Shown here one piece after another: positions 14,831 through 64,000 of a stretch of 64,000 nt of DNA (positions within the stretch are counted from its first letter, which is position 1; each line of letters opens with the position of its first letter). The stretch comes from a virus (taxonomy: Duplodnaviria; Caudoviricetes). The DNA lies in IMG/VR virus record IMGVR_UViG_3300012344_000011, positions 1-64,000 of that record; one strand, 5' to 3'. The position numbers and the translations under genes are program-made. The notes beneath the pieces are model-generated. The model was not told where the DNA came from, ran no database searches, and worked only from the letters and a program-made list of their open reading frames with translations.

Positions 14831-15052
14831 CTAATAAATATCAATTTCGTCTAATGTATCTTTCAAATAGTTGGGTAAACTTGAATAATCAATATAATTG
14901 TCTCTCAAGAAACGATCAACTTCATATCGAGGAATAGAATCATATTTATGACTATCTACAAAATTATTGATAACTGAAGCGTGATCATTTTCTTTCCAAC
15001 TTAGATAGCTAAAAACATCGTCAATCATTTCGTTTTCCTTTGATAAAATCAT
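14831..15052 (-). CDS. Hypothetical protein
   Basis: 73-aa ORF. Confidence 0.55.
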   Translation of the reverse strand: MILSKENEMIDDVFSYLSWKENDHASVINNFVDSHKYDSIPRYEVDRFLRDNYIDYSSLPNYLKDTLDEIDIY

Positions 15053-15354
15053 TATATCATATTTTTTTCACTATTGTCAATCAATTGTTTTGGCACAAAG
15101 CCATCACCATTTTTTTTTACTATCTTACTTTTATATACTTTATCTAATACTTGCATTACTTGTTCATAATATTTATCTCTTTTACAAAAATCTCATACTT
15201 CATTTATAAAATGATAATATTGTATATATAAATCTTCTGAGACTTCTCTAACACACCCTTGTTTTTTTGATGAAAGGATAAATTCTCCAATGCGGCATTG
15301 TATATTATCGCATTTAGAACATTCAAGGGTTATCTTATAAGAATTATTACTCAT
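15052..15354 (-). CDS. Hypothetical protein (100 aa) with in-frame TGA (15193-15195)
   Basis: MSNNSYKITLECSKC...NEV(TGA)DFCKR...; fills the gap exactly, TAATG overlap with next gene. Confidence 0.55.
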
Positions 15355-15584
15355 GCTTTTCTAATCTCCAACAGTACACAATCACCATGATCATTACGCC
15401 GCAAGTTTTCATTTGCTCGATCAATAACTGCTTGAGCTTCTTCCTTTGTATTATAACAAAAAGCATTAGTCAGTCGTGTTACTTGACTACCATACTTATT
15501 CAATGCTCTAAAATTCTTTTGCGGAGTATGCTTAACACCTGAAAAACTATACTCTTTGATGACTTTACCATAGATTCTATACAT
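15351..15584 (-). CDS. Hypothetical protein
   Basis: RBS, promoter TTGACA-18-TATAAT at 15640-15611; ends at TGA (7 more codons if read through). Confidence 0.65.
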   Translation of the reverse strand: MYRIYGKVIKEYSFSGVKHTPQKNFRALNKYGSQVTRLTNAFCYNTKEEAQAVIDRANENLRRNDHGDCVLLEIRKA

Positions 15585-15650
15585 TCTTATCCTTTCTCTT
15601 GGACAATTATATTATATCATAAAGTTTATGCTTCTGTCAAATAAAATATA

Positions 15651-15720
15651 AGGTTATAATTATGCTTAAGCATAATTATAACCTAAGCTAAAATAATATG
15701 CTTAAGCATATTATTTTAGC
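15651..15720. repeat. Two adjacent perfect 34-bp palindromes sharing core TATGCTTAAGCATA
   Basis: aggttataattatgcttaagcataattataacct (15651-15684) and gctaaaataatatgcttaagcatattattttagc (15687-15720). Confidence 0.95.
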
Positions 15721-15877
15721 AAGTCTCTATTTATAGTATAATTTTATTATTACTCTTTTATATACTAATTTATATTTTCAAAAATAAAAACCTCATAATA
15801 AATATATATTGGAGTGTATTATATCACAATCTGAAAATTTTGTCAAATTGAATTATTTCTCTACTGAAAAAATTTCT

Positions 15878-15907
15878 TTGACAATAATAATAAAGAAAGT
15901 GTATAAT
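15878..15907 (+). promoter_or_regulatory. sigma70/sigmaA-type promoter starting the plus-strand block
   Basis: TTGACA-18-TATAAT. Confidence 0.75.
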
Positions 15908-22937: not shown

Positions 22938-25202
22938 ATGGAAAATGTTATTATTACTCTTATTGTACTTCTTGCTTTCGCTTTATTAGTTATACACTTA
23001 TATAAAACAGCAAAGAAAAAGCAAAAAGTTACTAGTCTAAAAGAAGAAATAGATAATCTGAACGCTAATATAGTTGACTTGAAATGAGAATGTGAATCAG
23101 TTAACCGCGATCTAAAAGAAAAAGAACAACAGCGGCAATTGATGAAAAGCGAGCTAGAGAAACTTCAATATCAGAAGAGCAATGCAAAAGAAACATTAGA
23201 AACAATTCAAAGTGAAGTTGATTCTGCCACACAATCTGCCAATAATATTTTCTTATTGACAGAAGAAACAATCACTAAACAAAAAGAAAAGATTGAAGCA
23301 GAACTCAATACTTATATAAAAGATATTGAAGAGCAGAAGAAGCAAAAAAATTATGAATTAGAAAAGATTTGTTCTTCAATAGTTTCTTTGAATCATCAGT
23401 ATATCCAAGAGACACAAGAAAAAGAAAAACTAAATCAAAATAGATTGAATGTTTCTGAGGATAATATTAGTGATATAGAATTGTTAAATAGTATCAAGTT
23501 GAAATTTTCTAATCCTCGTATCATCAATAAACTAATTTGGCAAACTTATTATCAACCATTAGCAAAAACAAAGTTCGCAGCAATTCTTGATAATAAAACA
23601 AAAACTGGAATTTATAAAATTACTAATATAAACGATAATAAAATTTATATTGGTCAAGCGGTCAACTATAATCGGCCGATGAAAAACTTTTCCTACTAGC
23701 TGGTAGGGGTTACTAATTAAAATAGTAGCTAACGAGGAAGGGGAAATGTTAAAATTTTCTTAATCTCGTGGGAAAATTTGATTAATTCATCTTTTATAAA
23801 AATAATATATATATATGTAAGAAAGATTAAACTTACAAATAATAATTTTATAAAAGGAGATATAATAATGAAATATGTCAGTATTAAAGATACCACAGTT
23901 ATGTGTGGAATATATTTAATAGAATATCCTAATGGAAAAATTTATATAGGACAATCTCAAAATATTCATTTAAGAATATTAGAACATAATAGTAGAGCTA
24001 GAGTAGGACATAGAGGAGATAAAAAAAGAACTTCAATTATGTGATAAAAAAATTAGACAATATTTTGAAAATGGCATAACTGAATATATAATTCTAGAAA
24101 AATGTTCTATCGATGAATTAGATTCAAAAGAAGATTATTGAATTTCATATTATGATGCATTAAATAAAGAAAAAGGATATAACTTCTTAGATAAAGGAGA
24201 TGTTTCTGGAAGAAGAGGCGTTGATAATAGTAATGCATCTATAAATGAAAGTAAGTTAAAAATAATAATTGATTTATTATGCAATAATTATGAATTATCT
24301 TATCAGGATATTGCAGATAAAGTTTGCACTTCTTTATGTATAGTCCAAAGAATTAATTGGGGAAAAGCATATGTAAATCCTAATTTTCAATATCCATTAA
24401 GAAAACCGAATACTCACTTTTCTACAAGAAAAACTATTGAAGATTATTTTGTAGATAATGATAAACTCATTGAATTAAAAAAAGATTTAAAGTGGAGTTG
24501 GTGGCTTTCTATAGAAAAAGATTTGGTAAATAAATATAATATTCCTTTAAAAATAATGCATAATATAAATACTGGCAAAAATTTAAAGATATTGGAAATT
24601 ATAGTTATCCTATTAGGAATAAAAATATTAAAAATAAAAATAATTTATCTAAAGAAGATATTGAAGAATTGCTATTTTTATTAAGAACAACAAATATCTC
24701 AATGACTGAATTAGGTAAAAAATTTAATTTTGGTAGAGCAACTATTTCTAATATTAATCGTGGAATAGCATATCCTATAAAAGACTATAATTATCCAGCA
24801 AGGGTATAATCAAATAACCTGTATCGACTATTCCCTATGTCTTCTGGGCGGGGAAGTAGGGGTACTATTAGCACGTACTAGAGTTTTAGGAAACGAATCT
24901 CTTTAAATGCCGAAAAGGTTTCCTTGATTTAATCAAGTAAGAAATAGTCAGTTAATTTAATTTAAAATAAGTTAAGCGATATATATAAAAGATGGTGCGA
25001 TCATTGCAAGGCTGGATGCGGCATAGACACTCCCGCAAACAATAAATTGTATAAAGCTATGAGTCAAGATGGTTTATACAATTTTAAATTTGAATTATTA
25101 GAAGAATGTCAAAAAGAAGATCTAAACGAAAAAGAAAAATTTTATATTGATTTATATGAATCTGTAACTTATGGATATAATTCAATGGCTGGTCAAAATT
25201 AG
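22938..25202 (+). CDS. TM + coiled-coil + C-terminal GIY-YIG nuclease (316 aa); join(22938..23662,24977..25202), TGA at 23085
   Basis: Spliced product reads GIYKITNINDNKIYIGQAV|DIYKRWCDH...FELLEEC...LNEKEKFYI...GYN; N-terminal hydrophobic helix. Confidence 0.8.
23663..24976 (+). mobile_element. Group I intron with GIY-YIG HEG (23868-24809, frameshifted twice, TGA at 24139)
   Basis: Exon ends in U paired to IGS gccg, terminal G, core gctaacgaggaa/aatctcgtg, P7 gactat/atagtc. Confidence 0.9.
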
Positions 25203-28480: not shown

Positions 28481-31400
28481 ATGGCGAGTTCTAAATATGT
28501 TGACTCTTCCGCAATTGTTCAAGTCATAGGCTGCACTATGAAAGATCCAAGTCTATTGGAAGATGACAGATATTTTTATAATGAAGCAGATTTTGCGAAT
28601 AATTTTCACCGAGTTGTCTTTGGCGCAATAAATAATCTTTATACGATGGGTGCAAAAAAAGTTTCTTGCGCTGACATTGAAGCATATTTTGAAAATAGAC
28701 CTGAAAGTAAAGCTGTTTATTCTGCGGGAAAAGGTAGCGCCTGGCTAACAGAAGCAACATCAAATGCAGACTTGAATAATTTTGATTATTATTATAGTCG
28801 AATGAAAAAGATGACACTTCTAAGAGAGTATGAGTCTTGTGGATTAGATATGTCATTTTTATATAATCCTGATGAACTTTATGATTCTAAAAAGAAGAAA
28901 AGACAAGAAGATTATCTTGATAGTTTGTCATTGAATGAAATTGCAGATCTAATTGATAACAAAATTTTTGATATTAGAGCAAAATGCATAGACAATGCAA
29001 CCGATGAAGCAGCTAATGCTGGTGAAGGAATTTTTGATCTATTACAAAGATTAGAAGAAAATCCAGATGTTGGTACTGGATTATATGATAAATTGACAAA
29101 TACTGTTACCAGAGGAGCAAGATTAGGAAAATTCTATATTAGAAGCGCGCCTACAGGAGTCGGTATTTTGGGTATTTTTGTATAAATATTATATTATTAT
29201 TTTTATAGCTTCTTAGAGAACAAAATAAAGGAGGTTATAAAATAAATGGGAAAATCAAAAGAATATAAAGAAAAATATGAGATAGCAAAAAAAGAGTATC
29301 TAAAAGGTTGTGAAAGTCTTACTTCAATTTGCAAAAAATTTAAAATTGATAGAGGAACTTTTTCTTCAAACTTAAAATCTGATGGAATAGAAATTGTAAA
29401 TAAACAAAATATTGCCAAATTTAATGAAGAAATTTTTGAGGTTATAGACACTGAAGAAAAAGCTTATTGATTAGGATTTTTATATGCAGATGGATATGTT
29501 GAGTCTGGCAATCGGAATGCTATTGAGCTATCACTTAAATCTTCCGACATAGAACATTTAAGAAAATTTTCATCTTTTTTGGGTTTTGATGATAACAAAC
29601 ATATTTTTCAAGATGAAGTAAGATGTAGATTTTATTTTAGAAATAAAAAAGTTAAAAACAGACTAATTAGTCTTGGATGCGTTCCACAAAAAAGTTTAAT
29701 TTTAAAATTCCCGTCGGAAGAACAGGTTCCAAGAGAATTGATTAGACACTTTATTAGAGGATACGTAGATGGAGATGGAAGTCTAATGCTAGGAAAAAAT
29801 CATCTTGGAGAATATGTAAAACCAAGATTCAATATTCTTGGAACAGAAAATTTTTTAGAGGGAATTTTAGATGTAACTGGATGAAGAAAGCTTAAAATAC
29901 AGCATCCATCAAATGCATATTGCATAGAATGAAGTGGATTTTATGTTAAAGATTATCTTGATTTTCTTTATAAAGATTCAACTATTTACTTAGATAGAAA
30001 ATATAATAAATATTTAAAAATAACGAATATATTTGCCGACTATAAATCGCGGAACTAAGCGGGAAAACTAAGTCTATTTTTATAGATATGTCAATCCGAA
30101 CCGAAGGCTTGCAGTAATATACAAGTCAGGGGCAGAGCATAGGTGATGAAACTATTTTATAGAACATAATTCACCCAAGAGGCCGCGACTCCTATTGCTT
30201 TATAGGAAGAAAAGATATGCCGAGCTTATAAGAAATTATAAGAAATAAAAGATAAAAAACTTTTATGATAACAAAACTGAAAAGTAGAACAATGATTGCA
30301 GATGCAGCTACAATTGCATATAATAAAATATATGTGAATGGACAATGGCAAGATAATGGTATTTCACAACCAGTTCTTCTTATTAGTACAGAAATGGAAT
30401 TAGAAGAAGTACAAACAATGTTGTTAGCTTTCGTAGCAAATGTTGATGAAGATCATATAAAGAAGAATAGGTATGATTTTAATGAAAAAGAACGTGTTAT
30501 GGAAGCCGCACAAATTATTTCTAGTCAACCTCTTTATGTAGAAGTAATTCCAGATTTTAGTCTAAAAGATATTGAGAATACTATTAAAAGAAGTATTAGA
30601 ATTCATGGAGTAAAGTATGTGTTCAACAAAAAGGACTGTGGAACACTTTTCCTGCTCATCACAGGGGTATATATAAATAATAACACATATTATATATGCT
30701 AACGGGGAAGCCTAAACTTTATAATAAGCATGGTAATCCCGTGGGAAACTATTTAGCTATATACTAAATAGAACCTGTAACGACTATCTCCGAATCGGGA
30801 GAGTAGGGCTACTATTGATACGTAACTCGAAAAGGTGTCCTTTCTATTTTTAATAGAAAGTAAGATATAGTCTTGCATTATAGAAATATAATGATAACAG
30901 CTTCGATTATATTCATACATCTATGAAAATTCTTGAAGAGATAACAAGACGCTCAGGTGGTATCAAGTTAAGAGAAGATAATATTTTATTCTTGTTGTCT
31001 GTCAAACTAAAAGATATATGCACTCAATTTAATATATTTATTCTCACTTCAACACAATTAAATGGTAAGAAAAAGTAATTGCCAATAACTCCTTATCCTG
31101 TGTCTCGCAGGGGTAAATTATTTGGATAAAACTGAATAGTTTGCTAACGGGGAATTCTAAGTTATATTGAATATAGAATGGAAATATAATATGAAAATCC
31201 CGTGCGATGCAATTCATTGGAGGCTGGCTATGATAGGAATTTATAAAATTGAAAACTTGGTTAATCATAAAGTGTATATTGGGCAAAGTGTCGATATAAA
31301 AAAAAGATATAAAGAACATCTCAGAAGGGGGCAACCAAAGAAATATTCTTTAAAATCTGAGAGAGATAGAAAATGCCCTATACATTTAGCTATGCAAAAA

Positions 31401-32445
31401 GTATGGCGTTGAAAATTTTGAGCTAACCGTTTTACAAGAATGTAAAAAAGAAGAAATGGACAATCTAGAGAGATATTATATAAAAAAATATAAAAGTCTA
31501 GATAGAAATTTTGGATATAATGTTTCTCCTGGTGGACAAAATTATATTGGCGGCGTAGGAGAAAAACATTCTCAAGCAAAACTAACTCAAAAAGATGTTT
31601 GAGATATAAAGAAAAAATTAAAAATGGAATGACCACCAAAGAAATATCTGAAGATTATCCTTTTATTAGTAAAAGTACTATTAGTATGATTAATAATGGG
31701 CATATCTGAAAAGAAGATGGTGAATTATATCCAATTTTTGTTCAGAAGTCTGGTGCTTTTGGTCAAAATAATGGCAATTCAAAAGTTAATGACCAAGAAG
31801 TTATGGAAATCAGACAAGATTATGTTAATAAAAGTTTTTCAGATGTTTTAAGAGATTATCCTCAATATAGTAAAAGTTTAATTAGAAGCATTGTATATGG
31901 AGAATCTTGGAAACATCTTCCTATCTATAAGAAGTCATCAAAACAATGGATTGAGCCGTGTATCGACTATTCCCAAAGTCTGGAACAAGCTGGGAAGTAG
32001 GGGTGCTAGTGAGAAGCACCAGCATTTTAGGAAACGAAGTGCTATAAACCGAAACAGGAGTTCTCGTTCATATAACGAGTAAGATATAGTCAGTTCTTAT
32101 AAGAAATTATAAGAGTAAACGGATTGGAAAATGGATTCTATTCCAGATCAAAATTTACTTAGAGGTGCAAAAAGTATTGCAGATAAATGTGACTGGGGTT
32201 CAATTCTTCTAAACGCAACAAGTGAAGATATTGAGAATGTCAGTCCAATAGCAAGTCAATTGAATTGTAAAGTGCCAAATATGAAATTATCAATTTATAA
32301 AAATCGTGGTGGTAAATATACAAATATGTATCTTTGGATGTATGCAGATAAGAGTACGTGTAGGTATGACTCGATTTTTGCAACAGATTATCAATATAAT
32401 TGGATAAATATCAAACAAACTGAGATTATAACGGAGGTGGATTAA
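28481..32445 (+). CDS. dnaB: Replicative DnaB-like helicase, 505 aa; join(28481..29164,30280..30623,30901..31066,32122..32445)
   Basis: Splicing restores SAPTGVG|KSR (Walker A), ISTEM, YVF|FDYI (Walker B), STQLNG|DW, LRGAKSIADK, YKNRGG. Confidence 0.9.
29165..30279 (+). mobile_element. Group I intron dnaB-I1 with LAGLIDADG HEG (29246-30058) in the P1 loop
   Basis: IGS gccgact (~30035) pairs with exon agtcggt; EKAY(TGA)LGFLYADG and FIRGYVDGDG motifs; terminal G. Confidence 0.9.
30624..30900 (+). mobile_element. Group I intron dnaB-I2, ORF-less (277 nt)
   Basis: gctaacggggaa, aatcccgtg, gactat/atagtc, terminal G; removal restores frame. Confidence 0.9.
31067..32121 (+). mobile_element. Group I intron dnaB-I3 with GIY-YIG HEG (31230-32000, frameshifted)
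   Basis: IGS gcca; core motifs; GIYKIENLVNHKVYIGQS. Confidence 0.9.
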
Positions 32446-33519: not shown

Positions 33520-33862
33520 CGTTTTATCTGCGCAAGAAGCAGTAAATATCTTATGTAATTATTTCTTAGGAGAAGATTGGTATATAGTTGATCCAGTGCG
33601 TAATGATCAAGCAAATGCAATTATTGTTGAAGAAATTAAGAATACTGTTCCGTCAAAATATAATAAAGATAAATTTTTATTATATAGAAAAAGCACCCTC
33701 GGTGCAAATATTGTAAATATTATAAGATAATTGAGGCTCCTAATAAAACTATTCTAAGATGTAGTTTAAAAGATATTTTTATTTCTAAAGTATGGTTTGA
33801 AGGAAGATTTTGTAAATGGTACGTGCCAAAGAATAGAGAGAAAAACAGCAATGAAATATAAA
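33512..33862 (+). CDS. Hypothetical protein, probably one gene with a 1-nt A-run indel near 33690
   Basis: Alternate frame continues KKHPRCKYCKYYK...RFCKWYVPK. Confidence 0.45.
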
Positions 33863-35587
33863 TTATATACTACTGAATCATATAAATCTCCAATAGAGCA
33901 AGTATTAAAAGGTAGAAAAATTGATAATATTGAAAAATGGCTAAACGCAAATGAAGAAGATATTGAATCTTGGAGAGCATTAAAGAATATCGAAAAAGGT
34001 GTTTACAAAATGAAAGAGGTGATTGACAATGGAGATGATGCAACAGTTATTGTCGATTGTGATGTTGATGGATTCACTTCAGCGGCAATACTCTTCAATT
34101 ATTTGTATAGTTTGTATCCTTCTTGGTGCTGCGATCACCTTGGTTACCTACTTCACAAAGGGAAAGAACACGGACTTTCTGACTTGATTGAAGAGATTCC
34201 TGGAGGGACAAGACTAATTATTTGTCCAGACAGTGCTAGCAATGATTATGAGCAGCACGAATTTTTTGCTGGCAAGGCAGACATACTAATTCTTGATCAT
34301 CACGAAGCACCGCACGAATCAGAATCAAAGAATACTATTACAATCAATAATCAACTTTGTGATTATAAGAATAAAATGTTAAGTGGCGGTGGTGTTACTT
34401 GGCAATTCTGTAGAGCTTATAATGAAATTTTTGATTTACAAGGTGAAATAGATAATGATCTTTGTGCCCTCTCGTTAAGTGGTGATATGATGAGTTATCG
34501 CTCTATAGAAACAAAAGCTCTAGTTGATATTGGTTTTTCAAATATTACAAACCCTTTTTTCCATCAAATGACTTTAGATAATGAATATACCTTGAATAAG
34601 TATGGCGGTATAGGTTATAAGGCAGTAGCTTTCGCAGTAGTTCCTTTCATCAATGCAACAATTCGTTCTGGCACACAAGAAGAAAAAGAGTTGGTTTTCA
34701 AAGCAATGTGTAAACAATATTGTTTTGAAAATGTTCCTAATACCAAGAGAGGACATAAAGGAGAAGAGTGGTCACTTTATAAGCAAGCCGCATATGTAAC
34801 TGCAAGTGCTAAACGTAGACAAACAAATCTTGAAACGCAAGGTATAGAGCTATTAGAGAAGAAAATTGTTTCTGACAACCTATTGGACAATGCAGTTTTG
34901 ATCTTTAAATGTGAACCAGGAGAAGTTGAACCAAATATTCGAGGATTAGTAGCAAATAAATTTGCTTCTAAATATCAGCGTCCTTGTTTAGTGCTTACCA
35001 AGAGTAAGAGTAAAGATAATCAAGAATATTCTTATAGAGGTAGTTTGCGGAACTATGGTCAATCTGAAATTGAAAATCTAAAACAAATTTTTGAGGATAC
35101 TGGTTTGACAGAGTATGTTCAAGGACATGAGTCTGCGGCTGGTATTGGTATTGCAGAAAGTAATTTACAAAATTTTATCAATGTTACAAATGATTTACTA
35201 AAAGATAAGGTTGGAGAAGTTGTCTTTTGGGTTGATTATATTTGGAAGATGAATCAAGCAGATCCAAATAAACTTTTACAATTGGCAGAAATGAGTTCAT
35301 TTTGGGGACAAGATGTTCCCGCAAGCCAAGTTGCAATTACAGATATAGATTTATCTCAATGTAGATTGTCATTATGCGGGCAGAAGAACAATACTTTGAG
35401 AATGGTTCTTCCTAATGGACTCGTGTTAGTAAAATTTGGAATTGATGAAGAGATCTTTGATAGTCTGACTGGTCCAAATCTTTTTATGTCGTGTATTGTT
35501 ACGCCAACCCGCAATGAATGAATGGGAAAAGTTTCAGGAGAAGGTCTAATTGATGATTTTGAAATAAAAACTAAGTGGATATTCTAA
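33851..35587 (+). CDS. recJ: RecJ-like DHH ssDNA exonuclease (TGA at 35519 read as Trp)
   Basis: DCDVDG, HGL, ILDHH, GS.R, GHESAAG; C-terminus RNE(TGA)MGKVS matches RecJ NEW.G. Confidence 0.9.
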
Positions 35588-36125: not shown

Positions 36126-36137
36126 AAGGTTATAAAT

Positions 36138-36839
36138 ATGATATATAGAAACGAATCTTGCTTTACTTTTTTACCAACAATTAAAAGTAAAACAATAGAT
36201 TTGATTATTACAGACCCTCCTTATGAAATTTCAAAAATAACTAATTTTCAAAATGGAGAAGAGACTGGAAAAGATACAGACAGGTTTAGAATCTCTATGG
36301 ACTTTGGCGATTGAGATAATAATTTTAGTGGATTTGATATTGTTATCAAAGAATGTTATAGAATTTTGAAAGACGGAGGAACTCTAATTTGTTTTTATGA
36401 TTTGTGAAAAATTACTGTCCTAAAAGAATATTTTGAAAATGCTAAATTCAAACAAATTCGTTTTATTGAATGGCTAAAAACAAATCCTGTTCCTATCAAT
36501 TCAAAAATCAATTATCTAACCAATGCTAGAGAAGTTGCTGTTCTTGGAATAAAAAAATCTAAGCCAACATTTAACAGTAGTTATGATAAAGGGATCTATG
36601 AGTCTCCAATTTGTCACGACAAAGGAAGGTTTCACCCTACCCAAAAGCCAGTTGAATTGATTGAAGCCTTAATCGTTAAGCATTCAAATGAAAAAGATGT
36701 TGTGTTAGATTGTTTTAGTGGAAGTGAAACTACTGGTGTTGCCGCTCTAAAACAAAACAGAGATTTCATTGGGTGTGAAATTTCTAAGAAATACTATAAT
36801 AAATCATTAGAGAGATTGAATGAACAACTGTCAATGTAA
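36138..36839 (+). CDS. N4/N6 DNA methyltransferase, beta class (TGA at 36312, 36405)
   Basis: IITDPPY, DFGD(TGA)D, HPTQKP, VLDCFSGSETT (motif I variant), GCEI. Confidence 0.85.
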
Positions 36840-39900: not shown

Positions 39901-42760
39901 AAAATGTTCCTCTTGATGATATAGATGCCAAAGAGCAATATTATATTGAATATTATAATACACACGTATCAACTAATAAAGGATATAATATTTCTAAAGG
40001 TGGGAGATATAATATTGCAAATAGCACTCATATAGGAGTAAAAAATGGCAGGGCGTTATTATCTAAAGAACAGGTAGAATATATAAAATCACATCGAAAC
40101 ATTCCTGAATATGTATTATATGATGAATTTTCTGAAATTCTTACATACACAGCATTTAGAGATATATATTTAGATAAAACGTATAAAGATATAACTCCAA
40201 CAGTAGATATATGTCCAAATAATTTTGAATTTTCTTGTCAATTTAATAGATCTAAAATTACATATGATGAAGTGGTAGAGCTAAGACAGAAATATAAAAA
40301 TAATATATTTTGAAAAGATGCATATACTGATTACTATAAAACGCTTTATGATGAAATGACTTTTTGAAACATATATGTTGGGAATAGATTCAAATTAGTT
40401 AATCCTGAAGTTTTTACGCCAGAAAGAAAACATTATCAATCAATGTTATCACATTCTGGAGAGAACAATGGAAGAGCCAAACTAAAAAAAGAAGATGTTC
40501 TTAGTATAAGATATTTATTTAAATCTAATCAAAAAACTAGAGCAGAACTTCAAGAAAAATATTCTTATGTTTCAAAAACGACTATTAAATAATGTTATAA
40601 ACTATAAAACTTGAAAAAACATATAAATTACTTATAAATGCCAATCGACTATCCCTCGGAAGGGGAGTACAACTACTATTGATACGTAGTTGGAAAAGGT
40701 GTTCTCAATATTGATTGAGTAAGATATAGTCAGGACTTGTGGAAACACAAGAATAACTGGATACAAAGTACGATTTCTTGGTTACAGAACAAATGGATAT
40801 TATGGCACAATGTATTCAACTTCTCCAAGAGAACGGATATATGGAAAAAAATTTGACGTTGCGGCAAGCATATGATAAATATGTTCATCCAGATAAATTA
40901 CCTCTAAATGATAGTAAATTGTGGGATGCAATAGATTCTGCGAATTTATTAGCTCTCTTTCAGTTTAATACCGCTGTAGGAGGCAACATTGTGCGACAAT
41001 TGAAGCCAAGGAACGTAGAAGAATTAACAGCTTGTAATGCATTGACAAGATTAGCAGGAGAACCTGGAAAAGAAAGACCTGCTGATAAGTATTATAGATT
41101 TAAGAATAATTTGTCTTTATGGTATGAAGAAATGAACGAATATGGATTGACGCAACACGAACAAAAAGTTCTTGAAAAATATATGTTGACAGATTATGGT
41201 GTACCATCTTCGCAAGAAATTCTTATGACAATCTTGATGGATAAAGAAACATGCGGTTTTAGTCTTGCAGAAGCAAATACTGCAAGAAAGATTGTTGCAA
41301 AGAAGCAGATGGATAAAGTTCAGGGATTGAAAGAAAAAATTCTTGAAAAAGCAAAAAGAAAAATTTTGGGACAGTATATATGGGATAATGTTATTATGCC
41401 GCAAGCATCTTATTCGTTCTCCAGGATTCACGGATATAGCTATTCGCTTATTGCATGTCAAGCCGCATATTTAGCAACTTATTTTCCTTCTATCTATTGG
41501 AATACTGCATATCTAAGGGTAATTAGTGGTCTTGATGCAGATGCAAGCTCTAATTATAGTAAGATTGCAAAAGGTGTTGGAGATATAATTGAACACGGTG
41601 TAAATGTTTCATTGATTGATATTAATGAGTCTGATTATATGTTTAAGCCTGATGAAAAGAATCACGCCATTCGTTATGGACTAAAAGCTTTGAATGGTGT
41701 TGGTGGAGAGATCATCGAAGAGATTGTTAATAATAGACCATATGAAGATATATATGATTTTATGGAGAAAGTCAAATGCAATAAAACAGTAATGATAGCA
41801 TTGATAAAATCTGGCGCATTTGATAGTTTTGATACTCGTGAAAACATTATGAAAGAATACATTGGAATTACATCTGAACCAAAAAGACGTATTACAATGC
41901 AAAATTTTAATGGTTTATTGGAAAAAGGACTTTTACCGCAAGAGTTAGATTTTCAAAAGAGACTTTTTGTTTTCAATAAAGCACTAAAAAAGAATTGTAA
42001 ATTAGATGGTTATTTGATCTTTGAAAATAATTATTATAATTTTTACGAAGAGTTCTTTGATATTGATTTATTAGAACCTAAAGGAAATGTATTAGTAATG
42101 TCTGAGGGTCAATGGAAGAAACTATATGATAAAAATATGCTTCCCGCAAAAGAATATATTACTAAACACAAAGAAGAACTTTTAAAACAACTCAATGATA
42201 AATTGTTCCAAGAGGAATGGAATAAATACGCGGCTGGATCATTAAGTTCTTGGGAAATGACAAGTCTTGGTTTTTATTATCACGAGCACGAACTAAAGAA
42301 TCTTGATAATGAATACTACAATATTTACAATTTTAATGACTTGCCAGAAGAGCCTATTATAGATTATATTTTTAGTAGAGGCGGTCACGATATTCCAATT
42401 TATAAAACTTGTCGATTAGCAGGTACAGTAATTGCGAAAGATGATCTGAAGAGTAGTATAAGTATTTTGACTGTAAATAGCGGTGTTGTAAATGTAAAGT
42501 TTACAAGAGACTATTATGCAAAATATAATGCTCAATTATCTGAAATTGGTGTTGATGGAAAGAAACATGTCCAAGAAAAATCTTGGTTCAAACGTGGAAC
42601 TTTAGTTATTGTAAACGGTTTCCGCAGAGGAAATATGTTTGTAACGAAGTCTTACAAAAAATCAAAGTCACATCAGTTATATAAGATAACAGAAGTTTTT
42701 GATTCAGGTTTAGTCAATATGACAAATGCAAGATATGGAGAAGAAGAAGTCTTACTATAG
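36924..42760 (+). CDS. dnaE: DNA polymerase III alpha subunit, 1274 aa; join(36924..38258,39046..39534,40760..42760)
   Basis: PHP domain (HLHT, AITDHE, DAHY), GRGS, ELP|DIDLD, HASGV, G|DTKYDFL, YSFSRIH. Confidence 0.95.
38259..39045 (+). mobile_element. Group I intron dnaE-I1 with NUMOD4-HNH HEG (38431-38925, TGA at 38527)
   Basis: IGS gggcaatt pairs with exon aattgcct; HRLVAEAFIPN..VNHKD...NN...NLEWCT. Confidence 0.9.
39535..40759 (+). mobile_element. Group I intron dnaE-I2 with GIY-YIG HEG (39729-40592, TGAs at 39804, 40311, 40365)
   Basis: IGS gccac pairs gtggt; YVYLITNKVNNKKYVG...KR(TGA)ANH; P7 gactat/atagtc. Confidence 0.9.
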
Positions 42761-49285: not shown

Positions 49286-49364
49286 TTTTGTTTGACAGAG
49301 AAAAAAATATATTATATAATATAAATATAAAGAAAATGATAATGTTACTAGAAGGGAATAGCTT

Positions 49365-50312: not shown

Positions 50313-50740
50313 AAGATTTAGATATTTTTATTCATTATTTGCCTGGTTCTCCTGCTTTAGAAGTGACCGATTATGGCGACTGGGTAGATTTATATTGCTA
50401 TGAAGATATTGATTTACGCAAAGGTGAATCTTGTTATATTTCGCAAGGTATCTCAATGGCTCTTCCAGAAGGATATGAAGCAATTATGGCATCACGTAGT
50501 TCTACTTTTAAGAGATATGGTATTCTTCAACAAAATGGAATCGGTGTGATTGACAATATGTATCGCGGGACTGATGATATTTGGATGTTCCCTGCGTATG
50601 CTACAAGAGATATTCATATCAATAAAGGAACGCGAATTTGCCAGTTTCGTGTTCAGAAAAAGCAGCCTAAACTAAATTTTATTTCTATGCAGTCTCTTGG
50701 AGAAACTAACAGAAATGGTTTCGGAAGCAGTGGTGTCTAA
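50306..50740 (+). CDS. dut: Trimeric dUTPase
   Basis: GDWVDL, SRSS, GVIDN.YRG, RICQF, R.GFGSSG. Confidence 0.9.
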   Translation: MVEDLDIFIHYLPGSPALEVTDYGDWVDLYCYEDIDLRKGESCYISQGISMALPEGYEAIMASRSSTFKRYGILQQNGIGVIDNMYRGTDDIWMFPAYATRDIHINKGTRICQFRVQKKQPKLNFISMQSLGETNRNGFGSSGV

Positions 50741-51219
50741 TGATTTTGCTTAGTTTAGATCAGGCATTAAATACTACAGGCTGAGCTATTTTTGATAATA
50801 ACAAACTAATTGAAAATGATTCTTTCAATATAAAAGCAACTGCTCCAATAGAAGTAAGACTTGGTAGTTTTTGAAAGACGCTAAATTCTTTATATGAAAA
50901 ATATAATTTTGATTATTTAGTCTTTGAAGATATTCAGAATCAGAATAATAATGAAACATATAAAAAGTTAGCTTACTGCCAAGCAACAATATATCTTTGG
51001 TGTTATTTTAAAGAAATAAAATGTTCTATTATGGCACCCAGTCATTGGCGATCAATTTTAGATTATAGTTTTGGTCGCAAAAGAGAAGAACAAAAAAAAG
51101 CCGCAATGAATCTTGTGAAAGAAAAATGCGGCTTGAGCGTTTCTTCAGATGAAGCAGATGCTATTTGTATAGGTCTTGCTTATTTGCAAGAAACATCTAA
51201 AAATAAAAGTGCTTTCTAA
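50740..51219 (+). CDS. RuvC-like Holliday junction resolvase (TGA at 50782, 50872)
   Basis: MILLSLDQALNTTG(TGA)AIFD, VFED, PSHWR, K, DEADAICIG. Confidence 0.85.
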
Positions 51220-51417: not shown

Positions 51418-51514
51418 GTACCGCTCGCCTATTGGTATGGCCCTGGTCTTCAAAACCAAGAGTTGGTGGGGTCCAAACTCACCAAGCAGAGTTCGATTCT
51501 TTGGCGGTACGCCA
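51418..51514 (+). tRNA. UCA-anticodon (opal-decoding) tRNA, 97 nt, long variable arm
   Basis: gtaccgc/gcggtac acceptor, G73-CCA, tggt-ctTCAaa-acca, extra arm ttggtggg/ctcaccaa, cagag-ttcgatt-ctttg. Confidence 0.9.
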
Positions 51515-52528: not shown

Positions 52529-52572
52529 AAAAAAATGGGGGAGTACACTTCAAAAGTGTACTCCCTTTTTTT
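52529..52572. terminator. Bidirectional intrinsic terminator between convergent blocks
   Basis: gggagtacactt-ca-aaagtgtactccc hairpin flanked by A and T runs. Confidence 0.85.
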
Positions 52573-55779: not shown

Positions 55780-56748
55780 TTACCTCCAAATTCTAATTGC
55801 ATCAATTGGCTCTCCATTGCCAGCATAATCATCACTTGATCCGCCTGTATCATAAGAACCAATCATTTCAGGTAACCATTCACCAGTAGTTCTAGTATGT
55901 ACTTGATAATGAACGTCAGAGTCGGGAATCCAAAGTTTTGTAATTGGACTATCGCCTACACCAGCTGCTCCATTTACAAAATCATCAGGATTATACTCGT
56001 AAACCCAATCAGGCTCTTCCCCTGATTCAACACCAACTCTATATTGACTTACATTACCAATAGAAATGTAGTAAATATCATTACCATAGATACCAGCGTA
56101 ATCATCATCAGTTGCGGTGCAGCTAGTACCAATTACTTTGTCTCGCCATTCTGTATCGTAGGTTTTATAATATGGTTGTGAAACCTCTTCTTCTTCCTCG
56201 TCGCTATCATCAGAGCCATCTGACTCTTCTGTTGGACCAATATAATGAAGGATTCCATCCCAGGGATAGTCATAATACCAGTGAATATAAGACTCATAGC
56301 TAGTTTGATCACCTGTTTGACCATAGATAGTTCCGTTCTCAGAAATGCAGAACTCACCAAGAATATCATTGCTAGGAGAACCATCAAGACACATTGCAGT
56401 ATGATTTACTTCGTTGAGGTAAACGTCTCCTCTAGAAGCACTAAAACTCATATCGTGCCATTCAAATAATCCTGAATCAACAAAGACAGAACGCATATTG
56501 CCTGTGTAAGTAGCTCCATCTAACAAGCCTTCGTACGAACTACCTTTTAATGCTTCTTGCCAACAATCAATTACAGCAGAAGAGCAATCTCTATCACCAA
56601 TATAGAACTCACTTGTATGCCCTTCACATTCGACATAAATAGAACCTAGTGAAGCGTCTCCCCATCTACTACCCTGCGAATAGCCAAACCTTTCATCGTT
56701 ACAAAGAGCTTCCATATTTGTAGCAGCAATATTTGCATAATTTGCCAT
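55780..56748 (-). CDS. Endolysin (NlpC/P60-CHAP-like Cys peptidase + C-terminal wall-binding region)
   Basis: GYSQ..RW, DCSS, YTGNM, GDVYLN...HTAM, YPWDGILHY; YQVH...GEWLP; next to holin. Confidence 0.85.
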   Translation of the reverse strand: MANYANIAATNMEALCNDERFGYSQGSRWGDASLGSIYVECEGHTSEFYIGDRDCSSAVIDCWQEALKGSSYEGLLDGATYTGNMRSVFVDSGLFEWHDMSFSASRGDVYLNEVNHTAMCLDGSPSNDILGEFCISENGTIYGQTGDQTSYESYIHWYYDYPWDGILHYIGPTEESDGSDDSDEEEEEVSQPYYKTYDTEWRDKVIGTSCTATDDDYAGIYGNDIYYISIGNVSQYRVGVESGEEPDWVYEYNPDDFVNGAAGVGDSPITKLWIPDSDVHYQVHTRTTGEWLPEMIGSYDTGGSSDDYAGNGEPIDAIRIWR

Positions 56749-56760: not shown

Positions 56761-57003
56761 CTATTTTTCTTGTGGTTTTTTATTTCTCGCTTTTGGATTG
56801 ATAGTTTGTTTTTCTTTTTCGTCATCTTTCTCTTCAAGATAATTATCTAAAGCAGTAGCTACAGAATCAATAGAGTTACCACTACCTTTATTAGCCACTG
56901 CATTAGCAACAGCAGTAATTAACTTTACGCCATCAATAGATTTATCGTGGCTGTTTTGATAATTCCATTTTGCGGCAGGGCTTATAGGGCAATCTTTGAT
57001 CAT
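56761..57003 (-). CDS. Hypothetical protein
   Basis: ORF in lysis cluster. Confidence 0.5.
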   Translation of the reverse strand: MIKDCPISPAAKWNYQNSHDKSIDGVKLITAVANAVANKGSGNSIDSVATALDNYLEEKDDEKEKQTINPKARNKKPQEK

Positions 57004-57009
57004 TAAGCA

Positions 57010-57297
57010 TCATAGCAAAATTATTACAAAGATTGTTCCTACAACATATCCAATAGCAACAAGATCTTTGAAGAAGGCGGAGAGTCCTGCTGGTGTAGAT
57101 ACGTCTGGGTTAAAGGCTATTGTTGCTGTAGATAACATAAAGATACAACCAAAAATTAAAAGAAAAGTTCCTATTAGAGCCATAGAAATTCTAAATTTAG
57201 CTTTTGGGTGTAAGTTAGAAGGTTTAAAATCTGACAGTTTTATTTTTCCACGCATAGCATCGTGCGTATGTTTCGCTTCTTCTGTCATTACATTCAC
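57010..57297 (-). CDS. Two-TM membrane protein
   Basis: Hydrophobic segments; lysis cluster. Confidence 0.55.
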   Translation of the reverse strand: MNVMTEEAKHTHDAMRGKIKLSDFKPSNLHPKAKFRISMALIGTFLLIFGCIFMLSTATIAFNPDVSTPAGLSAFFKDLVAIGYVVGTIFVIILL

Positions 57298-57300: not shown

Positions 57301-57600
57301 CTATTCTGATTGAGAATTACTAGATGGTAATAATTTTTCTACTGTTTCCTTTGAAGTGGTGCTTGCGGTGATTGTTGTTGCAGTAGAATTAGTATTGCTA
57401 CCTTCTCTTGCGGCATCTACATAAGCTTCGGCCGCAGCATAAATTGCAGTAGAAAGTGCGGTACAAATGATACCCGCTACCATTACTGTCTCATTACCAG
57501 TTGCAAAACCAGCGCAAGTTCCTCCAATAGAAGCTAGAAAAGCGGCGATTGCCATCCAGAATTTACGACTACCAAATTTTTGTAAAAAATTAGTGTTCAT
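57301..57600 (-). CDS. Holin
   Basis: FLQKFGSRKFWMA, two TMs, Y..AE..VDAAR. Confidence 0.8.
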   Translation of the reverse strand: MNTNFLQKFGSRKFWMAIAAFLASIGGTCAGFATGNETVMVAGIICTALSTAIYAAAEAYVDAAREGSNTNSTATTITASTTSKETVEKLLPSSNSQSE

Positions 57601-58322: not shown

Positions 58323-61300
58323 TTATGAAGTCACCTTCCAAGTTCCAAGCGCGCGATATGAATATTTACCAGTAACATCACCAGATGTAGCTCGAAGCAA
58401 AAACACTTGTGGTGTTTGTAGATTACTCAAACCACTTCCAGTTTCAACTATAAATGCATTGTCTGAGGATATAAAATTACAATCGCAATGTTTAATCGAA
58501 GTAAATAGTTTAGTATATTTTGTTCCTCTAATTGTTACACTAAATTTTAATGAAGACGACAATGAAGTATTACCAGGAAATCCGTTAGTATGTCCAGTAC
58601 CGCTATCATATAACGATCCCCATGAAGATGATACTGAAACTGTTGTTGAAGAAGTCTGTCCCCAACATTCAGCCACTCCGCTTGCTCACATTCTATATGT
58701 CCAAAAATCACATTTGCCTTGAGCAACAATATAGTCTGCTATTGGAGTAGTCCAAGCAACTGGTGTTCCGTTACTAAAATAAACTGGCTGTTTATTATTA
58801 ACACCAACAGTGGAAATACTCAATTTATTAGCAGTTTTAGCATTTGTTGCGCTCTCAGCAGTTTTAGCATTTGTTGCGCTCTTAGCGGTCTCAGCACTTA
58901 CAGCACTCGTTGCAATAATTTGTGCCCCAGAATTTTCTTTAATTTTTAAAACACCGCTAGCCAATGTAACATCACCATTTAGCGTAGCTCCCATATTACA
59001 ATTCAAAGAAATAGAATTTTTATAATTTAATGCAATTTCTTTGTGATAATCTAATGCAACAATATTATTGTCTTTTCTTATAACAATATCACTATTCAAT
59101 AGATTGATTTGATCTTTATCTACAAAGAATGTTGCACCATCTCCTGGCGCAGGCGTATAAGCAGAACAAGATGGTCCTTTCTCTACCTTTAAGGTATCTT
59201 TAAAATTTTGTTCATCTGCGCTTGATGCAGAAGATATTGTAATTGTTCCCTCAAGAGATAAAAAAGTATATTTCGTAGTATCTTTTCCTATATCTGGTGT
59301 CAAAGGAATTTCATCTTTTTTAACGATAAATTCTACATCACTTGAAATAGAATACGTTCCAGTCTCAGGTATCTCTACTGTTGCAACATAGCCCACAAAA
59401 TCTTTTTGTTTGACGAGATTTCTTCCTCCTGTTACAACAATATCCCTACCATCATTTTTCTTCTGCGGAGGATAGATTGCAAATCCTTGTGTGCAGCTTG
59501 TTTCCATATTGTTTATAAAACCAGAAGATGAACTTGGTGCACCAATAGAAAGACCAGTTCCTCCTGCAAGGAAGTCAATAGTAAAAAATGATTGAGTCAA
59601 GTAATCTGTCGCAGAAACAGACCAAATATTGTCACTACCACTAAGTACAAGCTCAACCTTATATTGTGAATCAACTAAAAAACCTCCTTTTGGAAGCTCT
59701 AGGCAATAACTAAAAGATTGCGATTTTTCCCCATAATCAAATAATGGAGGGGTGTTATTTGAAAGACGGTAAAAGGTAACACCGCTCTTTTCACTATCTT
59801 CGTCATTGATTTTTACTTTTAGGGTAACCACTTTTGGTTTTATAGAGCTATCTGCATAAGGCTGTGTCTGAACCAATGCTCCTGTAATTTTTGCATACAC
59901 ACCGTCATCATCTAAAGAACCATCTTTCTTACATCTCATCAAAGTAAAATTTAGTATTTGCGGTTGAAAGATAACGGGTGTCAATTTTACTGTTAATTTA
60001 GGACTTTCTTTACTTCCAAGGATATAAGAATTTTCTGTATTTGAATCTTTAGTCATTTCAGAAGTAGACAAATAATATTCAGTACCAGATTCAATTAGTT
60101 TTCCACTATAAATCCAGCCACTAAACTTATTTGTTTTTGTGCTTTCACCTTGAGGTGTCAAGTAAATTCCTAAAAGTTCTTCTGAATTATCCTTGTATAT
60201 TGGCGTTTCTGGCTCTTCAATGCGAATATTTATCTCAACAGGTTTTGTAAAGACTTTCTCTGACTGTCTTACGTAAAAAGTTTTATTGCTTTCATTGTCT
60301 ACTTTACAAATTGTTTTAGGCGATAAATACTTAATAATCGAAGAAAAATCTTCATTTTCAGAAACTTCCCATTTACGTTCTTTTGCTTCTTTATATATTT
60401 TCGTAAAATTTGTTATAGTAATTTTTCTTTTTATTTTTGTCAAAGTGTATGGAGTTGCTTCTTGTTCTCCTTTAAACCAAAGAGAAAGCGTATATTTGTT
60501 AGACTCATTGTTATGTGTTTCTTCAACCTCTTCTAAGAAAGAAGTCTTTATGTCATCAGACGTTATTATTTGTGTTTCTGGCAATGTAATTGATTCATCT
60601 ACAATAGCAGTTTTAAGGTTTGTTCAAATTGGCTTAGTGAATGTTATGTCTTTTGTTACTATATATGCACCATTCTTTGTTTGCTCTTTTTCATCTTTGG
60701 TTTTCCAGTCAATAAAATTTTTGGTAGTAGTTATTGTTCTTGTTGCTATTTTAGTCTCTGTTAGAGAAGAATTGTTTGGATCTGTCTGTGTTATATATGT
60801 ATGCTTTATTATTTCTGACGTTATTTTAGATTGAACACCAAACTCTTTGTTAAGATCAATTTTATTGCCAGCAGTAAGATGAAAAGTCTTATTAATATTA
60901 ATTTTATCTTTATCATCATAAACAAAAGTAATGTCATAGATTTTGTCCCATTGAGCATAAATACTAATAACATTATCTGGATTTGTTACAGAAAAATATT
61001 TATCTTTAGCATAAATTGTATTTCCTATTTTTCATCCTGCAAATTTATATCCATCTTTTGTTGGTTTTATTTCTGGAAAATATACATTAGTTGTTACATT
61101 AGAAAGAATTTTTTTTGATTCTGTTTTCCAAAGTTTATCTCCATTATAATATTTTAGCGTGATAGTTTTCTTTTCTTTGGCTGGAATTGTGATCCAAAAG
61201 TCTAAAGAATCCGCTGAGATACTATGAAAACTTCCATTATAAGCAGTGCCAGTTGAACTGTCCCAACTTATTGTAAGATATATAGCATAACTAGAATCTT

Positions 61301-61568
61301 TTCTAGTATAAGTATAAGTAGCAAAAGTATCTATAGAACGTTCACCAGATCCAGACCCCCAAGAATAAGGCCCTCACTCATTCGTTGTACCATCATTCTT
61401 GTATAATGTCTCTCAATAATTACCACCAAAATTGTCAGTATAATAATAATCATAACGATAAATCTCTGGGGAAATAAAGTAATTATCATCATTTTGACTC
61501 TCATGCCAGTCTACACCAATTCGTAAATTGTCATTTGTACCAGGCACAACTTTCCAATCAATACCCAT
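58323..61568 (-). CDS. Tail fibre/receptor-binding-like protein, 1081 aa with five in-frame TGAs
   Basis: Single frame with TGA at 61413, 61374, 61032, 60624, 58686; PTKDGYKFAG(TGA)...YAQW (Listeria-Bacteroides repeat) and WTYRM(TGA)ASGVAECWG. Confidence 0.85.
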
Positions 61569-61569
61569 C

Positions 61570-64000
61570 TTATCCCTCCTTCTTATTGACTAGCCATTTT
61601 AGACCAATATTTTTTTCGCCAGTTCTTAAATAATCAGACCCTTCTCTTTTTTGCCATATGAAAGAACTTATTTGTTGTCTATCTAAGATCTGAGTTCTTT
61701 TGACATATAGTTTATCTTTTGTAAAATAAGCAATAGGTATTTGCGGCGATCCATCAGAAAAAAATCCAAGACCTTTATCTGTCGCAATTAGATTAACATT
61801 TTTTTGATCAGATGTATCGTCTTGTGTGATCCATCCTAGATATGTACTTATATCTTGATTGCCCTTATTTTCAATAATATCGTCTAAAGTTTTCTTCCCG
61901 CTAGCAGAGGTAAGAAGAAAACCAATTTTACTATTATAAACAAATTTATCATTTAGACTAAAACAAGCGGGAGTTCCAGTTGTTTCCTTTGTGTTTACAG
62001 AAAAGTCAGTTCCACTCAAAGTCATTTTTCCATTTCCAGGAGTTTCAATATCAACTTGAGAGGATGAAATACTAATATGACTACCTTCAATTGAATTTCC
62101 TATAATAATATTTGGAATATTACCTTCTGTAGATAGCTTTATTAATTCAAGCTCTTTACTATCAACGGTTTCAGACATTATAATACCAGAACTATTCATT
62201 TTTAAGTTATTACCATTTGAAGTTAATTGAATTGGAAAATCACCATTGTTAATTTCTACTGCTTTATTTTTAGTAGCCAAAGAAGATATAACTGTTTCTG
62301 AATTAATAGATAACTTTTGATCCTTATAAACAATAGCATCTTTACCAAGAGAAAAAGTTCCGTTATTGTTAAAATAAAAACTAGGAGTTGAGCCGCCTTC
62401 CACGGAAGAAGAAAGACCAGTTTCAGTTATTATAAGTCCACCAATAATTCCTTTTGTAGCAGAAACAGACCCGCTTTTACTTATTGAAAAAATAGGTTCA
62501 CCATTAACATTTTGTTTACAAGTTAGAAAATCTTCTTCAGATGAAATTGTAACCATAGACCCATCTGCTCCAATAGAAGAAAGACTATTAGTATTGATAG
62601 CAAAACCACCAATTTTTCCGCTAAAGGCTTCAATATTTCCCTTTACTGATAATAAAGATGTCGTTTTTTTCGTCTCTTCATTTTTTTCATTGATTAAAAA
62701 TAAAGTAGGTGACTTTATATTGCCAGAATTTAAATCAATAGAAAGTCCGTTAGTAGAAAAAAGTTCATCTTTGTCTTCTTCATAATTAAGAGATTTCAGT
62801 ACACCAGCTTTGATGATATTAGCACTTAAAAAATTTGTTACCAATGAATAATTATTATTACTATCTTTTTCAACACCCCAGCAGCCACTATATTTTTCCC
62901 AGTTTACTTTAGAGATTTCTTCCTCGTTAAAACCTAGCAAGTACTTTGTGACAGCTAATTGATCTTTTAATGTCTGAGAAGAATCTATTGCTTTATTTGT
63001 TGAATCTATTGGAAAACACCAATCTGTCGATGCATCTCCTTCTTCTAATTTTAAAGTTTTTGCCTCTATTCTTACACTAGTAAAAGTGGTAGCAGATGTA
63101 TCTTCACTTTCTGTAAATGAAAAACAAACAGCTCAAACATACTCATTTGTTTTTAAATCTTCTATTTGAAGGCATTTTTTAAAAATAACACTTTCTGTTT
63201 TTATATTTATGTTTTCTACAGAAATTCTTCTCTCTTCTTTTGTCTGTCTAGATCCGATTATTATAGAGACATTTAATACAACCGTTCTATTTGCAGTTGC
63301 CCTGAAAGATAATGTATAAAACCCTTTATTCATAATTTTTTCAACATTTGTAACAAGAATAGATCTGGTAATAACATTATTATTTTTTTCACATTCTTTT
63401 TCTTCTTCATTAATAATTATATCTTTTTCAGTATCTTTCAATAAATTTTCATTAGATCCATTCATTGTAGATTTAGAAATAGAGAGATCGTCGTTGAGCA
63501 ATCCTAGCCTTCCTGCTTTTGAAATACCAAACCAACTATTATCATTAGTTTTAAAAGCGAGGGCGTTGCGATTAACTCTAAAATATTCTGATATATTTTC
63601 ATCTTCATTAGATACCATATCATCGTGCATCGAAAGAAAGTCTTTACCAGCCTCTAAACGTGAACTTTTTGCATAACCAAGCGTTGTTGTAGTTCCAAAT
63701 TGTGCATAAGGTTCATTCGTTTTATCATTCGCTGCACTATATAAAGAAACACCATTAACACCATACTGTGCTATTACTTTGTCATTAGTATCACCTTTAT
63801 TTTTATACTTAAAAGCTAAAGAAGTATTTCCAAGACTAGCTTTAAAACCACTTTTTTTACTATTGTATATATCTAATGTAGCACCCTCTCCATCTTTAGA
63901 AGAGAACTCCATAATATCTGCGGAGCTAATAGAAGTCATATACCATTTTTCGTGAGAACACATAAAGTTCACTGTTTGATTATCTGCCCAGCCATTTACA
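61570..64000 (-). CDS. Large tail (host-specificity/minor structural) protein, 5' end outside window; TGA at 63133
   Basis: ORFs 63133-63972 and 61570-62940 are one frame joined via KLEEGDASTDW; A.SGKIGGF.I repeats. Confidence 0.8.

Follow-up and report, generated by a model that had tools for sequence, protein, structure and literature searches.

A two-arm tRNA, a probable suppressor, and late-biased TGA recoding in a gut phage genome

Reassignment of the stop codon UGA to tryptophan is known from phages, and the Agate gut phages (Borges et al., bioRxiv 10.1101/2021.08.26.457843) are among the known systems closest to the virus described here. We analyzed the first 64 kb (the window) of the virus record IMGVR_UViG_3300012344_000011, a caudovirus genome of 139,824 bp that is 96% complete, with a focus on its in-frame TGA codons and on a 97-nt tRNA gene with a UCA anticodon and a second, anticodon-like arm. 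The genome size falls within the range of about 127-154 kb given for Agate, and in those portions of the preprint that are available the two share TGA-encoded tryptophan, spared replication genes, recoded structural genes, a suppressor tRNA and close relatives with the standard code. In addition, both have a recoded intron endonuclease, a lysis cassette that includes a transmembrane gene and, adjacent to this cassette on its upstream side, a tail gene. The difference lies in the tRNA: in the same portions of that work suppressor tRNAs are given as present or absent (present in 35% of genomes with genetic code 4), and a second anticodon arm is not described.

The AP1 and HF2 pairs of tryptophanyl-tRNA synthetase (TrpRS) and tRNA(UCA) (PMC12636597) and the Jade module also resemble this locus, as phage UCA tRNAs insert tryptophan at UGA and some of them are charged by host enzymes. 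According to the accessible parts of Seki et al. (PMC12636597), 13 of 13 analyzed phage UCA tRNAs insert tryptophan and 9 of 31 were active with host enzymes, while those paired with their own TrpRS were not charged in E. coli. AP1 and HF2 differ in that they need the phage TrpRS; our searches under code 11 found neither a TrpRS nor a release factor in this 96% complete genome, and the RF1 and TrpRS genes that accompany the tRNA in the Jade code-change module were not found beside it here. An extra arm goes unmentioned in the main text of that study. Likewise, tRNA-Sec, allo-tRNAs and SelC* (Mukai et al., PMC5389517) are about 95 nt long, carry a long arm after the anticodon arm and in some cases a UCA anticodon, but have 8/5, 8/4 or 9/3 folds and are charged with Ser, Ala or Cys, in contrast to the 7/5 fold and 7-nt CCA loop found here. 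Anticodon-like hairpins that act as synthetase handles are known from the E. coli thrS operator and from viral tRNA-like structures (PMC9976931), which are mRNA elements and not decoding tRNAs. Finally, phAss-1 (OQ749652, PMC10607447) has a similar size, recoded late genes, a predicted Clostridia host and no phage synthetase, but reads TAG as Gln with three CUA tRNAs. In the literature searched, which left most subscription papers outside its coverage, a tRNA with two anticodon arms is not described, nor is its presence in code-4 bacteria, and these two observations are what is new here; the recoding in itself is the published late-gene-biased code-4 pattern of gut phages.

A tRNA with two anticodon-like arms

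The UCA anticodon of the phage tRNA lies at 51450-51452 on a stem with a C27:A43 mismatch, and is followed by a variable region of 27 nt with an 8-bp stem, compared to 4-5 nt in canonical bacterial tRNA-Trp(UCA). The minimum free energy fold contains two 7-nt loops, the second of which presents the CCA triplet of tRNA-Trp (Table 1). ARAGORN labels the gene 'SeC', and the Rfam model for tRNA-Sec (RF01852) scores it at 44.8 bits, below the cut-off of 47. However, the tRNA has a 7/5 fold instead of the 8-bp acceptor and 5-bp T stem of tRNA-Sec, its D stem is 3 bp long where that of tRNA-Sec is long and capped by a tetraloop, and it lacks the 8/4 or 9/3 acceptor branch of allo-tRNAs and SelC*. A BLASTN search against 50,697 GenBank phages returned no match.

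A scan in which the UCA arm and the T loop were the sole fixed elements yielded 46 distinct long-arm tRNAs, eight of the Sec type and 38 of the 7/5 type. The extra-arm loop contains TCCA in 37 of the 38 non-Sec phage tRNAs, compared to a mean of 2.8 and a maximum of 9 after shuffling, and in none of the eight Sec-type tRNAs. This count is the unbiased loop statistic, as our larger sets of 48 and 54 sequences were chosen on TCCA; loose DNA patterns gave mostly chance matches, and those kept parse as full cloverleafs. All 48 distinct sequences anchored on the TCCA loop keep the 7-nt loop and carry G73. In the second arm the three inner stem positions form pairs in every sequence (48/48) although both strands of the stem vary, and 227 of 240 stem cells are paired, compared to 127 when shuffled and 70-114 when slid. 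Moreover, 13-15 nt separate the second loop from the T stem, close to the 14-15 nt of the anticodon loop in true tRNA-Trp. Together, the covariation of the stem, the conserved CCA loop and the canonical spacing to the T stem indicate that the second arm copies the anticodon arm of tRNA-Trp and has been maintained.

The spacing of the CCA arm could also mean that both arms decode, alternating in the ribosome with UCA reading UGA and CCA reading UGG, so that one gene would serve as suppressor and as tRNA-Trp. In line with this idea, the 3' half of one relative can be parsed as that of a normal tRNA-Trp, and we found no tRNA-Trp(CCA) in the phage genome. On the other hand, 24 of 48 sequences, including the tRNA studied here, have a G at position 32 of the second loop, and the 31-39 pair is weak, being Watson-Crick in only 26 of 48. 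A G at position 32 is unlike decoding loops and better suits a protein-binding loop. As many carriers retain a separate tRNA-Trp(CCA) and a UCA anticodon should already wobble on UGG, we consider such a two-headed decoder improbable.

UGA as tryptophan and as stop

The original prediction claimed about 20 in-frame TGA codons, and we count 21 in real genes of the window (Table 1) and about 35 more elsewhere in the genome, mostly in tail genes. All of the sequence contexts quoted for them are in frame (29468, 35519, 36312, 39804, 50782 and two minus-strand sites); for the latter pair the coordinates needed correction, as the codons start at 61034 and 58688 and the values given, 61032 and 58686, are their low coordinates. 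Codon counts confirm that TGG still dominates, and the gyrase, DnaB, DnaE and NrdD pieces, the endolysin and the putative holin are indeed free of TGA. A TGA-bearing gene between holin and endolysin had been missed (56761-57288), and a frameshifted GIY-YIG gene at 31191-32000 holds a few additional TGAs outside this count. Coding density proved uninformative as a test of the code in this genome, since TGA and TAG give similar gains and TGA is not singled out; on the loci that carry the tRNA it does no more than lean to code 4 (23 vs 7 of 39).

Comparison with homologues bears out the claim that TGA encodes Trp at family-conserved sites. At the two TGA sites of the DNA methyltransferase, 79/80 and 80/81 of the aligned residues in homologues are W. 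Five syntenic relatives were compared, three of which use the standard code (G001-G003) and two of which are recoded (G004, G005). In columns locally conserved in the standard-code relatives, the TGA sites of the phage correspond to W in 9/11 cases and its TGG sites in 103/134, and TGA never corresponds to S, G, C or R. For example, the TGA in recJ is W (TGG) in five relatives and that at 50782 in ruvC is W in standard-code orthologues, while the TGA of the 100-aa open reading frame (ORF) is W in G005 and L in standard-code relatives; for the coiled-coil ORF the comparison did not settle the residue. As judged from these alignments, UGA is read as Trp. Our initial idea of a Ser-derived tRNA that reads UGA as Ser was ruled out by the same columns.

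A reading of the tRNA as a Ser- or Sec-type suppressor, with the TGAs translated as Ser or by a near-cognate host tRNA-Trp, would accommodate the ARAGORN and Rfam assignments, and a long arm together with G73 are SerRS elements (PMC5389517). We nevertheless regard it as very improbable, because the fold is 7/5, the score is below the Sec cut-off, true Sec-type tRNAs lack the CCA loop (0/8), TGA columns are W and never S, and the tRNA tracks recoding across relatives.

UGA has also kept its meaning as a stop. The suspicion that the ORF at 15351 might end in TGA proved correct, as the TGA at 15353 is a true stop, at which the orthologues in G001 and G003 terminate as well. Just upstream of this 77-aa ORF lies a TTGACA-17-TATAAT sequence. 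This stop, together with the Trp columns elsewhere, indicates that the phage uses UGA both ways. The TGA stop, the TGA-poor core replication genes and the lack of detected release factor or TrpRS genes are also consistent with a host that uses the standard code; this support is indirect, and such a host is probable. Portal matches to phAss-1 (the nearest named phage, 37%) and to Enterococcus, Bacillus and Clostridioides phages point to a likely host in the Bacillota.

Recoding is unevenly distributed over the functional classes, which are our own assignments from Pfam, PHROGs and position. Across the whole genome, TGA and TGG codons number 34:144 in late genes (34/178) and 6:87 in the replication operon (6/93; Fisher p=0.006), and homing endonucleases have 11 TGA to 20 TGG (11/31; p=2e-4 vs replication). 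The late bias recurs in both recoded relatives, with 27:23 late and 4:52 replication codons in G004 (p=9e-8) and 7:2 and 3:80 in G005 (p=5e-7), and the replication-region TGAs of the two lie nearly all within ruvC. An A/G third-base bias was ruled out as the source of the late excess, because among Lys, Glu and Gln codons those ending in A make up 0.73-0.79 in replication and tail genes alike. Between lysis genes and the remaining late genes there is no difference (p=0.47). The endolysin is without TGA here (a chance of about 0.12) but has 2, 5 and 5 TGAs in G004, G005 and the pig-gut relative L505, so that a TGA-free endolysin is, by this comparison, not a feature of the clade. The contrast that the original prediction had drawn with a lysis-biased pattern of recoded gut phages did not hold, since the distribution matches that of the TGA-recoded Agate phages in the available portions of Borges et al.

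Across the relatives compared, TGA recoding and the tRNA travel together. G001-G003 have no UCA tRNA and, at positions aligned to Trp residues of this phage, 405 TGG and no TGA codons, whereas G004 and G005 have the tRNA and 22 TGAs at such positions. L505 carries a two-arm UCA tRNA at the same position after ruvC (L505:11718-12029, minus strand). A 214-nt intron, group I-like at its ends, interrupts the UCA anticodon of this tRNA after U34, and ARAGORN missed the gene. The body of the L505 tRNA is unlike that of the window tRNA at this shared locus, suggestive of a replacement.

The original prediction also proposed that the phage tRNA gates nuclease and tail genes, an idea already put forward in the portions of Borges et al. 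available (bioRxiv 10.1101/2021.08.26.457843), and this is likely given that each of the four recoded genomes examined (this phage, G004, G005 and L505) has TGA in ruvC, at partly different sites, and given the TGA share of the homing endonucleases. Alternatively, there may be no regulatory gate, and TGA may simply drift in wherever the tRNA permits and be purged solely where a gene is required ahead of its accumulation, or the host itself may use code 4. The modest late share of TGA (19% of late Trp codons), the capsid module with 0/13 and the 7 of 12 homing endonucleases without TGA would suit drift, and code-4 gut bacteria exist (PMC13462651). Yet TGA sites are common to recoded relatives, with the terminase and sigma factor TGAs of this phage recurring in G004 and the TGA at 57012 of the lysis-cassette gene in both G004 and G005, and ruvC has been recoded in four genomes at partly different sites; moreover, the true TGA stop and the TGA-free replication genes argue against a host that lacks RF2. 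We judge the absence of a gate, or a code-4 host, to be rather unlikely.

Proposed charging of the tRNA and its presence in bacterial chromosomes

It is probable, in our view, that this is a two-code phage whose late and nuclease genes need UGA to be read as Trp, and that this reading is provided by the two-arm tRNA, with one arm for decoding and the other as a handle for TrpRS. Early replication genes avoid TGA and at least one early gene stops at it, and the comparisons show that the tail, terminase, sigma-factor, RuvC and intron-endonuclease genes and one gene of the lysis cassette need UGA as Trp. A sigma-70/sigma-A-type promoter match (49292-49320, plus strand; a consensus match only, at 12/12 positions) heads a gene run that closes with ruvC, a small ORF, the tRNA and a homing endonuclease, and suggests early transcription of the tRNA by the host polymerase. 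As the tRNA accumulates it would compete with host RF2, and full-length late products would rise. The UCA arm would decode UGA on the ribosome, and the CCA loop would be presented to the host TrpRS. Both arms are canonically spaced, the CCA arm relative to the T arm and the UCA arm relative to the D arm, so that each can occupy the position of the anticodon, and a fold switch that changes which arm stacks under the D stem would be the likely route. G73 and the CCA anticodon are identity elements for TrpRS (PMC9976931), and the second arm most likely lets the host enzyme charge the tRNA, so that the phage would require no synthetase of its own. If true, such a handle would answer how suppressor tRNAs are charged without a phage synthetase, and would provide a design rule for them in which the identity loop is kept and the decoding loop is free to change. 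A phage sigma factor may further couple late transcription to the code switch; its gene (genome positions 108463-109539; L003:11763-12839) and a probable terminase piece (103958-104896; L003:7258-8196) each hold two TGAs that are shared with G004.

Several observations weigh against this interpretation. One-arm viral UCA tRNAs with a simple short arm are about as common as the two-arm type (37 loci), and as the majority come without a phage TrpRS, a second arm is not a requirement; of those in L458-L504, 21 have G as discriminator, 7 have A and 3 have U. In favour of the handle, TrpRS occurs in 0/30 two-arm and 3/17 one-arm records (L460, L463 and L484; p=0.04), but the contrast is small and the records are not independent. 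The acceptor is atypical, with G1-C72, U2-A71 and A3-U70 in place of the Trp-type A1-U72, G2-C71 and G3-C70 found in 36, 29 and 39 of the 48 family members, and the long arm and G73 are Ser-like. The genome is 96% complete, and divergent factors can escape searches under code 11. Furthermore, the late bias may come from purifying selection on early genes and not from a selected timer.

The second arm might also be a shield, in which it acts as a decoy for host anticodon nucleases or other defences directed at tRNA-Trp, while charging by TrpRS depends on nothing but G73 and the UCA loop. Phage tRNAs do counter anticodon nucleases, and the many phages with simple UCA tRNAs but no TrpRS would fit. 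Against this, a cleavable loop within one molecule would destroy the tRNA, bacterial chromosomes (L335, L345 and L515) retain the arm, with compensatory changes, and in the sole amber case seen the loop is of the Gln type, in agreement with the inserted amino acid. We give the shield little credence.

We next turn to these bacterial copies. A scan of 185,579 genomes for the two-arm tRNA gave eight true matches, and three such genomes that were checked keep RF2. One of these, the cultured isolate Bacteroides neonati MS4 (NZ_HG726020.1), carries the tRNA beside terminase-like genes (L341:2948-3043) and is a possible source for bench work. In L345 (contig JAUNQF010000023.1) and L335 the tRNA lies amid TGA-containing housekeeping genes, and the genomes lack RF2 and have a TGA within the RF1 gene; a third chromosomal copy is found on the metagenome contig L515, beside a TGA-bearing SpoU methylase. 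JAUNQF01 belongs to a genus with code 4 according to Parks et al. 2026 (Equivita, PMC13462651), and the genome G006 is, by its accession prefix, size and RF2 loss, a candidate match for their 1.09-Mb code-4 metagenome-assembled genome. Parks et al. (PMC13462651) treat the tRNA-Trp(UCA) of Equivita and Gorillivita as an ordinary one, perhaps a duplicate of tRNA-Trp(CCA), and the words 'phage' and 'variable' are absent from their text; L345, L335 and L515 carry the two-arm type. In a search of 339 genomes of the family (Eggerthellaceae), the two-arm tRNA turned up solely in the genomes of L335 and L345, and a one-arm UCA tRNA solely in one further RF2-less genome, G212 (probably Gorillivita). 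No other UCA tRNA was found in these RF2-less genomes, which are incomplete assemblies, and as the sole one found the two-arm tRNA gains indirect functional support.

The core of the Equivita tRNA has a similarity of 0.86 to the phage tRNA L175 and to L511 from a phage-like contig, against 0.61 to the tRNA-Trp(CCA) of its own genome. This difference suggests that a phage was the donor in a cellular code change; the G212 tRNA is likewise closer to L175 (0.86) than to its own tRNA-Trp (0.68). The direction from phage to bacterium rests on the far greater diversity of the tRNA in phages, and an approximately unbiased test on the poorly resolved tRNA-core tree (68 columns) did not reject a host origin (p=0.10). 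The G212 one-arm tRNA (L444:563-650, G212:C125) is located directly after secA, head-to-head, at the site where prfB is found in two relatives and in 175/178 code-11 species. It is conceivable, and we propose it tentatively, that phages built a tRNA with identity and decoding on separate arms and that Eggerthellaceae captured it, which made RF2 dispensable and changed the code of the whole cell. If the tRNA is phage-derived, this would be a concrete route by which a stop-reassigning tRNA is gained, in a transition for which Parks et al. left the order of events open. Two-arm tRNA genes are labelled 'SeC', or missed if split by an intron, which helps explain the low suppressor count of 35% in code-4 phage genomes.

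Gene features and neighbouring elements

The coordinates of the recoded genes, the tRNA and the lysis region are collected in Table 1. Neither Pfam nor PHROGs gave a match for the 175-aa protein encoded between holin and endolysin, and from its position we infer a role in lysis; the putative holin likewise has no profile match.

Table 1. Coordinates of the tRNA, TGA-bearing genes and related features in the window.
Feature	Position	Strand	Remarks
Opal suppressor tRNA, 97 nt	51418..51514	+	7-bp acceptor and 5-bp T stem, G73, encoded CCA
Second anticodon-like arm	51463..51485	+	8-bp stem; 7-nt loop 51471-51477, U-CCA-AA, CCA at 51473-51475
Bidirectional terminator-like hairpin	52537..52567	.	closes tRNA operon against late operon
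100-aa ORF	15052..15354	-	TGA 15195
77-aa promoter-proximal ORF	15351..15584	-	ends in TGA, ATGA overlap
Coiled-coil ORF	22938..23699	+	TGA 23085
LAGLIDADG endonuclease between dnaB pieces	29246..30058	+	3 TGA / 0 TGG
RecJ	33851..35587	+	TGA 35519 near C-terminus
N6/N4 DNA methyltransferase (Pfam)	36138..36839	+	TGA 36312, 36405
HNH endonuclease between dnaE pieces	38431..38925	+	TGA 38527
GIY-YIG endonuclease between dnaE pieces	39729..40592	+	3 TGA / 0 TGG
RuvC resolvase	50740..51219	+	TGA 50782, 50872
Endolysin-like gene	55780..56748	-	0 TGA / 10 TGG
175-aa hydrophobic protein between holin and endolysin	56761..57288	-	TGA 57012
Putative holin	57301..57600	-	by position and hydrophobicity; TGA-free, one Trp codon
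ORF	58323..61568	-	function inferred from position
Probable tail protein	61570..64000	-	TGA 63135; continues to genome position 64260
In-frame TGA codons (21)	15195, 23085, 29468, 29882, 29930, 35519, 36312, 36405, 38527, 39804, 40311, 40365, 50782, 50872, 57012, 58688, 60626, 61034, 61376, 61415, 63135

Between 28481 and 48808, dnaB, dnaE and nrdD are each in 3-4 pieces with homing endonuclease genes between them. Two adjacent methyltransferase-like genes (35598-36839) share 72-78% identity with genes of the unrelated TAG-recoded phages L006, L007 and L035, which suggests a mobile pair that gained its TGAs after arrival. L006 also encodes a 90-nt tRNA(CUA) (L006:2305-2394) whose extra-arm loop contains TTG, the Gln anticodon, and which is a possible amber analogue of the two-arm tRNA.

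The terminator-like hairpin holds CTTCAAAA, the same letters as in the UCA loop in a different register, probably by chance. A TROVE/vWA (Ro60-like) gene at genome positions 125708-127573 (L004:9708-11573) is TGA-free, and upstream of it lies a structured RNA that ARAGORN calls an intron-containing tRNA-Arg. The window further contains an RNA ligase gene at 4501-5742 and, on the minus strand at 7797-7867, a tRNA-like gene with a UGU-centred loop and a degenerate T loop, which scores 38.7 bits in Rfam and was missed by ARAGORN.

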